A stretch of 64,000 nt of DNA from Rhabdochlamydiaceae bacterium (lineage in GTDB: Bacteria; Chlamydiota; Chlamydiia; Chlamydiales; Rhabdochlamydiaceae): contig JAJREF010000001.1 in the NCBI GenBank assembly GCA_047459655.1, positions 160,001-224,000 of the forward strand. Direction: 5' to 3'. This document shows, piece after piece, positions 46,279 to 48,296 of the stretch. The position numbers and the translations under genes are program-made. The notes beneath the pieces are model-generated. The model saw only the letters and a program-made list of their open reading frames with translations. It made no database searches and was not told where the DNA came from. How positions within the stretch are numbered: position 1 is the first letter of the stretch; every line of letters begins with the position of its first letter.

Positions 46279-47166
46279 ATGGTTTCAGCCGCAGCTGCCT
46301 CTGATCCTGGAAGTTCTGTCCCCGCAATTTTTCATGATGGTTCTAGACCCTCAGAGTTATATTTTATAACGTCTATCGAAAATGTGCACTCAATTCTCAA
46401 GCATGGAATTTTGTCTCATAAACGGGCGGCTAGCCATAACCCCACAAGTATTGCTAACGATGAGGTTCAGAGTAGGAGAGAACACAAAATATTTTCTAAT
46501 CCAGATCGCGAACAAACAGCTAAAGAACGACTCCCCATTCATAGATGTGTAAATTTGTACATAAGGGCTCACAATGCTATGCTTTTTGTAAAAAAAGAGC
46601 AGAGGGCTGATTTGTGTGTATTTAGAATACATCCACAAATTCTTGGACGGTGCGAGGTTGTCATTGCAGATCGAAATGCATCTAAAGATGACGCACGTTT
46701 TTATCAAGCTAGAGACTTTTGTTTTTCTCCGGTGAGTTCAGAAATGCTTCAAAATCCCCTGTCTTTGGTATGGAATGATAAAGAGACACTAGGAAAAGCA
46801 GAAAAAAGAAAATATGTTAGACAAGCTGAAGTACTGATTCCTTATGCACTCCACCCAAGCTATATCCAAGGAATTTTTGTTGCGGATTCAAGGGCAAGAG
46901 AAAAGCTTCTTAATATAATAAACGGGACTAAATACAAAGATAATTTACCCGTAGACATACATCCTACCCTGTTTTTTTCAACTGATACTAAGAACCGGGA
47001 AGGAACGAATCCTCTTGCACGTATTAACGCCGCTCCTTTGCGTAATGGAGTTTATCCTCGCTTACATGAAGAACTTCCAGAGAGTTCTGATGAGGAACAC
47101 GAAACTCATGTGGAACAAGATTTCTCGCTTCCTATGGAAGAAGATATAGCAGGGGTAGATGAATAG
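46279..47166 (+). CDS. darT: DarT (DUF4433) DNA ADP-ribosyltransferase toxin
   Basis: LYFITSIENVHSILKHGILS, QSRR, VNLY....NAML, ADRNA and catalytic RQAEVLI motifs; AAGGAG RBS; next to a macrodomain gene. Confidence 0.88.
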   Translation: MVSAAAASDPGSSVPAIFHDGSRPSELYFITSIENVHSILKHGILSHKRAASHNPTSIANDEVQSRREHKIFSNPDREQTAKERLPIHRCVNLYIRAHNAMLFVKKEQRADLCVFRIHPQILGRCEVVIADRNASKDDARFYQARDFCFSPVSSEMLQNPLSLVWNDKETLGKAEKRKYVRQAEVLIPYALHPSYIQGIFVADSRAREKLLNIINGTKYKDNLPVDIHPTLFFSTDTKNREGTNPLARINAAPLRNGVYPRLHEELPESSDEEHETHVEQDFSLPMEEDIAGVDE

Positions 47167-48296
47167 CGTAAGTAGATATTTTTTTTGCGCTTCAGAAGGC
47201 AGTATTTACGATGTAACGCGGCGGGGTATTTGGCATGATATGCCTTTGAACCATGGGCTTGATCCAATTTCTTCTTCTACCGTGGTAATTCTTAAAGATG
47301 ATGGAAGAGAAGCAAGTGCAACGGATGTAAAATTGTCTAAATATGTTCGAGTTATATCTAACCCTTCTGCTTATTTAGAGAGTTGGGAAGGGAACCGACT
47401 TAATGTGTTTTTAGTAGAAATTAATCCTAGGATTATAAACAGACCAGACATTTTAAAAATTCAAAGAATTAGAGATAAGAGAATTGAATTTCTAAAAAAT
47501 ATTATGGTCGATTTAAGCGAAGTTCTACGTATTGTTGTTAGCTCCAAGAATGTTGAAAAAAAATTACGCGAGGTTATTAAGGAAGATCTGTGTAAAATTT
47601 CGATTGTTGTTGAGCCTCAGTTATTTGGTTTAGACATTCAAACTTCTTCACATCTTGATAAGGGGGTTGTAATTTCTCAATCTATTGCTCAGCCTGCTGG
47701 ACCAGTCCCTACTTCCGAAAAACTTGATCTTATAAAAGTCTGTAAAGGAGATCTATTACTATCTCCTATGCAGACCCATGTTAATACCGTGAACTGTGTA
47801 GGCATAATGGGAAAAGGCATTGCTTTATCCTTTAAGAAAAGATATCCAGAAATGTTTAAAGATTACGCGAGTAAATGCAAAAAGAAAAGAGGTGAAATTA
47901 GGAAAGCCTTACCCTTATGCTCTAGGAAATGGAAGGACCATCTTGAACTTTCCAACAAAAGGCCATTGGAAAGAAAACTCTAAAATAGAGGATGTTAAGT
48001 CAGGGCTTCAGTATTTAGTTGCACATATTAAAGAATGGAATATCCGATCAATTGCGCTGCCTCCTTTAGGTTGCGGGAATGGGAATTTAAGTTGGGATGA
48101 TGTCTTTCCGATAATGCGTGAATATCTTGCTCCGTTGAATATCCCTGTAGAAATTTATGCTCCCCATGATGCCTATTCTTTTGGACAGCCCCTTCAGGCT
48201 ATTCCGCCAAGACCTCGAAAAAGAAAAAGTGAAGACCAGGGGGCTGGACCATTATCTAAATATTTCAAGGCTGAAGTGAAAGAATGGACGCACTAA
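47159..48296 (+). CDS. darG: DarG-type macrodomain antitoxin with an N-terminal DarT-like domain (one frameshift near 47885)
   Basis: GDLL....QTHVNTVNCVGIMGKGIA, NFPTK.HW and SIALPPLGCGNG.L.W macrodomain motifs; 8-nt overlap with darT. Confidence 0.85.

Follow-up and report, generated by a model that had tools for sequence, protein, structure and literature searches.

The present analysis concerns a stretch of 64,000 nt of Rhabdochlamydiaceae DNA (hereafter the window, taken from a home genome of 1.6 Mb in 5 contigs), and within it a pair of overlapping genes in which darT, encoding a DNA ADP-ribosyltransferase toxin, is followed by a gene for a macrodomain protein whose N-terminal region is a degenerate DarT (the dead domain, or pseudo-DarT). 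The features of the locus, in window positions, are the following.

46279 to 47166, plus strand: darT (DNA ADP-ribosyltransferase, 295 aa), from PF14487 (E 5e-31), alignment and the nearest solved relative, 7OMU.
47065 to 47163, plus strand: acidic toxin tail, net charge -14, with a PESSDEE motif, from sequence comparison.
47159 to 47166, plus strand: toxin stop and partner start overlapping by 8 bases, from the sequence.
47171 to 47629, plus strand: pseudo-DarT domain, residues 5-157, with Glu110 present and Arg, Tyr, Met and the ADP-ribosylating turn-turn (ARTT) loop missing, from profiles, AlphaFold2, Foldseek and VIA.
47630 to 47728, plus strand: flexible linker (~33 aa), from low predicted local distance difference test (pLDDT) values in the intact ortholog P0005.
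47729 to 47880, plus strand: macrodomain part 1 with an NTVNC...GKGIA motif, PF01661 positions 1-40, E 3e-7.
47875 to 47890, plus strand: frame break in an A-rich run, a likely assembly error, from short-read contigs of run X1.
47881 to 48158, plus strand: macrodomain part 2, with the FPTK lysine at 47958-47960 equivalent to DarG K80, PF01661 positions 55-118 (E 7e-10) and alignment to 5M31.
48159 to 48296, plus strand: disordered basic tail (45 residues) with a PRKRK resembling a nuclear localization signal (NLS) at 48213-48227 and a stretch at 48243-48266, AGPLSKYF, resembling a non-canonical PCNA-interacting peptide (PIP) box and containing no Gln.

The upstream gene has both the profile score (108 bits against PF14487) and the catalytic residues of a DarT, its 76.8 bits against the NCBIfam DarT equivalog lying under the cut-off of 150. 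Residues R67, N133 and E184 are invariant in 31 of 31 aligned DarTs, Y94 is likewise invariant and M101 nearly so; R67 occupies the alignment column of the Thermus DarT RR. As read from the sequence, some 25 Ala/Ser/Pro-rich residues precede the toxin domain, against about 5 ahead of the partner's domain. The PESSDEE motif, presumably a casein-kinase-2-like site, is common to the window's DarT clade and missing from two canonical-length DarTs checked. The Asn at the base-reading position was considered as a sign of guanine specificity and rejected, as canonical macrodomain-linked DarTs have either Asn or His there. The order of the genes is darT first and the dead-DarT-macrodomain partner second, with both in one operon as in DarTG; their overlap (8 bases here, 4 bases in the corresponding operon of genome G342) suggests coupled translation. 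Promoter and terminator scans at the locus returned nothing above chance level.

A preliminary description of this DNA had proposed that the partner begins with a pseudoenzyme of the DarT fold, on the strength of five collinear blocks shared with the toxin; these blocks lie in the place and order given for them, and hhalign pairs them alike. Compared pairwise, the toxin and partner genes show no significant likeness (BLASTP E 0.40, and likewise in a DNA comparison), and any duplication would therefore be old. Single-sequence comparisons of the partner domain gave a probability of 14.6% against a DarT profile, 15.3 bits (E 0.016, short of the curated cut-off of 22.5) against Pfam DarT, E 0.0015 against PADLOC DarT and E 0.0013 against NCBIfam toxin_DarT; the domain ranked second of 3824 genome open reading frames against a custom DarT profile, yet at an E of only 0.58. 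Profile-profile comparisons, for which N-terminal columns only were used and the macrodomain was excluded, yielded a probability of 91.5% and a score of 46 with a 4-row profile (maxima of 23.7 in 100 column shuffles and 28.8 in 100 block shuffles), and 97.8%, E 1.2e-12 and a score of 81 over 151 columns when a 13-row profile was aligned to 31 DarT domains with hhalign, where 40 block shuffles scored at most 30.8 and the reversed profile 14.9. An AlphaFold2 model of the dead domain (pLDDT 87.4; predicted template-modelling score, pTM, 0.84), made template-free from a family-only alignment with no DarT row, retrieved DarT chains at all of ranks 1-8 in Foldseek (best E 4.5e-6, probability 1.0) and DarTs at ranks 1-7 in VIA; in the latter the DarT half of 7OMU aligned over 144 residues at Z 13.4 and a root-mean-square deviation (rmsd) of 2.6 A, other DarTs at Z 10.8-11.9 and the next family at Z 8.7. 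By both comparisons the modelled domain falls within the DarT/ARTD fold, and the profile and Foldseek checks that had been proposed for it found likeness to DarT rather than an absence of similarity to ADP-ribosyltransferase (ART) folds. In the ESM Atlas the dead domain reached unnamed clusters only; a more eroded relative reached DarT clusters at 0.86, which can serve as a lead only. The dead domain scored 77 against the chlamydial DarT group and 47 against canonical-length DarTs, sets that differ in diversity. On profiles and predicted structure, the identity of partner residues 5-157 as a degenerate DarT can be regarded as confirmed.

Both DarT1 and DarT2 are reported to require Glu, Arg, Met and a base-reading Asn or His within the ARTT loop (PMC11543638, available text), a loop given as 44 aa (PMC11281641, available text). 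In the alignment the dead domain reads STVVIL at the Arg region, Ile opposite Y94 and Tyr or Leu opposite M101. Toxin residues 126-182 (57 aa) stand opposite 12 residues of the dead domain, a loss of 45 residues that includes N133 and comprises the DNA-binding ARTT loop, which bears out the earlier remark that the RR motif and about 45 aa before the Glu are missing. Of the 13 rows, 7 have E in the Glu column, 1 has D there and 5 have some other residue; the domain thus does not present the set of Arg, Met, base-reading His or Asn in a long ARTT loop, and Glu. Since Arg, Tyr, Met and the ARTT loop are gone and the Glu column is not fixed, DarT-type activity in the N-terminal domain is very unlikely. 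Three other positions (G23, D97 and K113) are nearly invariant, and in the 13 rows the net charge of the domain takes values between -7 and +6. The earlier suggestion that the domain guides the eraser to single-stranded DNA (ssDNA) loses ground, because the DNA-binding loop has been lost and net charge is not conserved. Between the window and G342 the identity is 51.3% for the pseudo domain and 52.2% for the toxin, compared with 63% for the macrodomain (P0005 versus G342); as its divergence is no faster than the toxin's, the pseudo domain is under selection.

The macrodomain that follows has retained its catalytic lysine, which is K80 in DarG (PMC8385414, available text) and is invariant in 32 of 32 rows of the present alignment, and by structure comparison it is TARG1-like. 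It does not stand at the N-terminus, as it would in canonical DarG, and no DarG C-terminal toxin-binding domain was found, DarG profiles matching only over the first ~150 of their 329-338 positions (for the intact ortholog, which then continues into a disordered tail, from position 2 to 153 of 338); the preliminary description had already held this domain to be absent. The pair would be expected to work like DarTG, with a partner that is not a canonical DarG and an N-terminal domain that is not an active-type DarT. Neither the eukaryote-type tail motifs described below nor a break in the macrodomain had figured in that description. In the window assembly the macrodomain is split over two frames near 47880. 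Of the sequencing runs listed as containing this DNA, none was an RNA run. Contigs from run X1, a lake-water metagenome that is maybe the source sample and hence represents a second assembly and not a second organism, differ from window positions 40000-56000 by 10 single-base indels and 0 substitutions, one indel lying at the macrodomain break; an ABC ATPase close by, which the window has in split form, is unbroken in both genomes of the same genus. For these two reasons the break is likely an assembly error, and the view of the partner as a real pseudogene was rejected. The ten indels also call for care with other "frameshift" findings in the window genome. Split genes within 40000-56000 (the ABC ATPase at 42166/42504, tamB, tamA and hemL) are likely assembly errors, and the interval 40220-40390 collects numerous short contigs and loose ends, in the manner of a tRNA or repeat.

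When 1.84 billion representatives were searched with a profile and, from the best 150 of 10,975 matches, those with long N-terminal extensions were sorted by eye and with Pfam, the total together with P0005, P0006, the G342 protein and that of the window came to at least 33 dead-DarT-macrodomain proteins, comprising 13 close members (these four included) and 20 that are more eroded. Compared profile to profile, the close and the eroded group reach a probability of 98.3%; between the eroded group and DarT it is 96.6%, though over no more than 46 columns (block-shuffle maximum 69.7%), and the eroded group has no invariant polar catalytic residue in its N-terminal domain. Among the same best 150 are 9 DarT-macrodomain fusions, one of them N-terminally cut. 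Protein P0058, from one short contig, consists of a dead domain and an intact acidic-tail DarT without a macrodomain, at 46% and 51% identity to the window's dead domain and DarT, respectively, and was counted as a Rosetta-stone link between the two; it lends only indirect support to the heterodimer with the toxin that the preliminary description had suggested. Of 401 Chlamydiota genomes, 18 matched: 3 with this type (G000, G342, G108), 4 with fusions, 9 with canonical darTG and 2 others. Intact DarT-macrodomain fusions occur in the chlamydial genomes G094, G257, G370 and G400; in the family of G257 a fusion is present in 8 of 23 genomes, all within one genus (8 of its 9). Fusions at L234-L240, L036:5249-8660 and L038:7584-10585 carry a VIDLT resembling a SUMO-interacting motif (SIM) together with "KRGIE.WL" linker motifs. 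All placed members belong to Chlamydiota or to one 1.3-Mb gammaproteobacterium, and one protein relative comes from Ca. Rhabdochlamydia. A darT neighbour accompanies all four dead-DarT-macrodomain genes whose context is known (4 of the 33 members), in the same operon in the window and G342, divergently in G108, and in G442, the 1.3-Mb gammaproteobacterial genome, as a broken darT of the acidic-tail clade directly upstream of an intact eroded member. Relatives were not found among 60 relatives or 128 family genomes by single-protein or 3-row searches, nor by pattern searches of JGI metagenomes and GTDB contigs; an IMG/VR scan (80 kept loci) gave no match starting before query residue 85, hence no full family member, and a fold search of BFVD gave no match at E 0.001 or better.

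Several observations were made alongside these. The fusions in G370 and G257 lie directly behind Fic-like genes; at L063:1841-3568 and 3400-4000, in a small-genome gammaproteobacterium, a eukaryote-type protein kinase gene and a broken darT stand beside an eroded member; and the dead-DarT-macrodomain proteins P0040 and P0044 have an extra GNAT acetyltransferase domain after the PIP/NLS stretch. In the window, an operon of four genes that resembles a type III translocon and includes an LcrH/SycD chaperone (43876-46148, minus strand; TIGR02552 99.8 bits, cut-off 104.8) is divergent from darT and is kept in G001 and G002. What stands in the slot between this operon and tamB (window 46150-48400) varies: in the window it is the darT pair, in G002 a Fic-like and in G001 an ATPase-like gene (L246:5826-6869; L247:5740-7155; both labelled by the look of the sequence). 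Because other genes fill the slot in two same-genus genomes, the darT pair was taken to have arrived horizontally, and closeness to the translocon operon was rejected as evidence for an effector role. At L022-L034, many Chlamydiota proteins, most of them 480-1100+ aa long, have in common a domain that closes with "NEVM.K..I.P..I.GIVV" and matches the last third of PF14487 (E 1e-6 to 1e-3); these are possibly an undescribed family of ART-fold effectors.

With regard to origin, the preliminary description had derived the partner by duplication from a DarT-macrodomain fusion. A fusion ancestor is likely, as intact fusions exist in chlamydiae and in PDB 7OMU, and P0039 links both clades; the series from fusion through split pair to eroded form agrees with this. 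The split of the ancestor may have come about by tandem duplication or by capture of a second gene, between which the present data do not discriminate. P0039 is a fusion of an acidic-tail-clade DarT with a macrodomain that groups with 8 of 12 close members (SH-like approximate likelihood ratio test 86) in a quick, unrooted macrodomain tree of 88 rows, from which the window's split macrodomain was left out. 7OMU, a one-chain DarT-macrodomain protein, is the top match by sequence and by structure for the toxin, the dead domain and the full partner; its Glu column reads Ala, presumably an engineered change. The window partner differs from such a one-chain fusion in that its DarT half is not full-length and has neither the loop nor the residues. 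A model of P0005 (pTM 0.66) aligns to 7OMU over both domains, but with a TM score of 0.39 and an rmsd of 17, which suggests that the two domains are loosely tethered; a docking role is therefore neither supported nor excluded by the model.

After 5 of the 33 members with tails shorter than 15 aa were dropped, 28 tails were scored against shuffles: NLS-like clusters occur in 24 (9.2 expected), PIP-like [LIMV]xx[FY][FY] motifs in 8 (0.6 expected) and both motifs in 8 (0.2 expected). Q-type PIP boxes, following the consensus in the available text of PMC6116012, were present in 3 of 32 tails (P0035, P0040, P0061) and in 2 of 10 fusion linkers or tails (P0046, P0112), with P0029 left out of this count and 0.07 expected in all. 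By comparison, in the window genome a Q-type PIP box is found in 0.09% of C-termini, both motifs in 0.6% of C-terminal 45-mers, and a PIP-like motif in 0 of 88 disorder-like windows, and canonical DarG controls show no excess (PIP-like 2 of 35 with 2.3 expected; NLS-like 3 of 35 with 3.2 expected). A VIDLT-type SIM, the core of the PIAS SIM (PMC3901395, available text), occurs in 4 of 17 fusions, 0 of 33 dead-domain proteins and 6 of 1158 window-genome proteins. Judged by pattern, the tail and linker motifs suggest eukaryotic replication forks as the destination. A type III export gate is encoded in the window genome (E 2e-220) and also in G342, G370 and G108. According to PMC8501950, a Thermus-type DarT in TARG1-deficient human cells causes DNA damage at PCNA-positive replication sites, and a chlamydial symbiont is reported to block giant-virus factories (PMC9457554, available text); host forks and giant viruses are both plausible targets on these grounds. 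Separately, macrodomain proteins with PIP-like tails and no DarT-like domain were noted (P0059, P0063, P0083, P0121, P0125, P0138), of which P0125 combines a Q-type PIP box, an NLS-like cluster and VIDLT in one protein.

Taken together, these data allow a model to be put forward in which the dead domain acts as a dock for the toxin within a host-directed writer/eraser pair, a reading to which we give slightly less than an even chance. Its base consists of a DarT-like domain that has lost Arg, Tyr, Met and the ARTT loop, a macrodomain with its Lys intact, the missing DarG C-terminal domain and the retained pairing with darT. It is quite probable that a one-chain DarT-macrodomain ancestor gave rise, through duplication or gene capture, to two proteins, an acidic-tailed active DarT and a dead-DarT-macrodomain protein. 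The dead domain may then, more tentatively, bind the active DarT and so stand in for the lost toxin-binding domain of DarG, whereby the toxin would be restrained in the bacterium and the two halves linked again. By way of the basic, PIP-like and SIM-like motifs the proteins could reach the nucleus of the host and its PCNA; there DarT would ADP-ribosylate ssDNA at host forks, and the macrodomain would take the mark off again as the eraser of an effector pair; these two events, taken jointly, have somewhat better than an even chance. In its widest form, the model holds that protist-dwelling bacteria have turned the anti-phage DarTG system into a eukaryote-directed DNA writer/eraser, in which NLS, PIP-box and SUMO-binding motifs guide DarT-macrodomain proteins to PCNA at replication forks, either in the nucleus of the host or in co-infecting giant viruses, the chain being split here and the dead DarT serving as a dock that recognizes its own kind and both carries the toxin and restrains it; as a whole this version is possible but doubtful.

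A number of observations weigh against the docking, host-directed model. The motif patterns were picked post hoc after the tails had been viewed, and the rows are kin; the window's PIP-like motif has no Gln and the three closest orthologs (P0005, P0006, P0027) have no such motif; and one of the 35 canonical DarG controls carries a Q-type match. With respect to export, the partner has no unstructured N-terminal leader ahead of its folded domain, as is true of many fusions, VirB4 was not found in the four chlamydial genomes examined, and G442, an incomplete genome, gave no match to a type III gate, DotA or VirB4, although the DotA search was blank in controls too. Support in the macrodomain tree is poor, with 6 of 85 branches starred, the P0005 model does not reproduce how the domains of 7OMU pack, and the variable slot (Fic in G002, ATPase in G001), together with the operon, looks like an ordinary mobile toxin-antitoxin cassette.

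The last point leads to the competitor that fares best, which is possible though we would put it clearly below an even chance: an internal toxin-antitoxin or anti-phage module resembling DarTG, by which bacterial or phage ssDNA would be modified and then erased, the dead domain and the oppositely charged tails would join the proteins, and the eukaryote-like motifs would be DNA-binding tails or chance. An overlapping two-gene operon with the toxin first is what such a module would have, as are the patchy distribution (this type in 3 of 401 Chlamydiota genomes, where canonical darTG has 9 loci), the variable slot, the partner without a secretion leader and the usual order of decay seen in G442, where the toxin is broken and the partner intact; chlamydiae also have working type II systems, according to the available portion of PMC10880633, in which DarT is not mentioned. 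However, a bacterial cell offers no partner for Q-type PIP boxes or VIDLT, whose enrichment lies far above shuffles and above the proteins of the window genome, and a fusion kept steadily by 8 of the 9 genomes in one genus does not look like a defence cassette of sporadic occurrence. It is, in turn, unlikely that the eraser is itself the host-directed factor, able to act alone at forks in the manner of PARG or TARG1 and to remove host ADP-ribose signals, with a dead domain whose ligand is not the toxin but DNA, a host protein or an ADP-ribosylated target. The intact partner beside a broken toxin in G442 would fit this, as would PIP-like motifs in 6 of 25 short-tailed macrodomain proteins without a DarT-like domain (0.85 expected), the TARG1-like macrodomain and the use of a non-canonical PIP box by human PARG (PMC6116012). 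However, darT is the neighbour in all four known contexts, P0058 places the dead domain onto DarT, and it is the DNA-binding loop that was lost, with no conservation of net charge. Quite improbable is a domain that is still an enzyme, either a minimal ART or one that cleaves NAD, directed at some new target and comparable to the short-loop Tpt1/KptA or CC0527 folds. Short-loop ARTs do match at Z 7-8.7, the Glu column keeps an acidic residue in 8 of 13 rows and G23, D97 and K113 are nearly invariant; against this, Glu is replaced in 5 of 13 rows when it is invariant in 31 of 31 DarTs, the Arg, Met and base-reading residue, each essential in DarT1 and DarT2 by the same report (PMC11543638), are gone, and the 20 eroded relatives have no invariant polar catalytic residue in the domain. 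That the DarT likeness is due to chance, as the non-significant pairwise scores and unnamed ESM Atlas clusters could be taken to mean, is hardly credible and is largely refuted already by the profile and structure results with their controls.

In the literature searched, outside whose scope lay supplements, the 2021 7OMU paper and LeRoux 2022, no description was found of a dead DarT domain in an antitoxin or of a PIP-bearing DarT or DarG. If the docking model holds, the antitoxin would have been made from an inactive copy of the toxin that it controls, which would be new as a means of regulating a DNA ADP-ribosyltransferase; the graded series of intact fusion, split pair, eroded forms and dead-domain/toxin fusion allows the birth of a pseudoenzyme to be followed. 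Should the motifs be functional, these proteins would act as bacterial effectors on host replication forks, where they would modify DNA bases in a reversible manner, and would be candidates for how chlamydial symbionts change host cell cycles or block giant-virus factories. In addition, new DarT variants and their natural regulators are relevant to DarT-based genome editing (PMC13368585, available text).

Comparison with known systems places the pair between several of them. Like DarTG2 of Thermus, enteropathogenic Escherichia coli and M. tuberculosis, it consists of a darT, with the Arg, Met and Glu of the toxin kept, and an overlapping gene for a DarG-type macrodomain with its catalytic Lys. 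However, the window partner's macrodomain is not N-terminal and is preceded by a dead DarT, the domain that DarG has at its C-terminus, which sequesters the toxin (PMC7003065, available text), is absent, and both window proteins carry disordered tails. The Thermosipho africanus DarTG fusion (7OMU) has the same order of a DarT fold and then a macrodomain, but there the DarT is full-length with its ARTT loop and the linker amounts to a few residues, whereas in the window the DarT half is eroded, the linker is flexible at ~33 aa and a separate darT gene adjoins. Legionella SidE or Lem26 with MavL likewise provide a writer and a macrodomain eraser encoded nearby in an intracellular bacterium (PMC12522546, available text), although those pairs modify a protein (ubiquitin), use Dot/Icm, have no dead ART copy and belong to an unrelated ART clade. 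Finally, the macrodomain of the window partner resembles that of human TARG1, and human PARG offers the parallel of an ADP-ribose eraser recruited to PCNA by a PIP box, a binding that for the window partner is predicted from motifs; unlike either human protein, the window partner is bacterial, fused to a dead DarT and linked to a darT gene.

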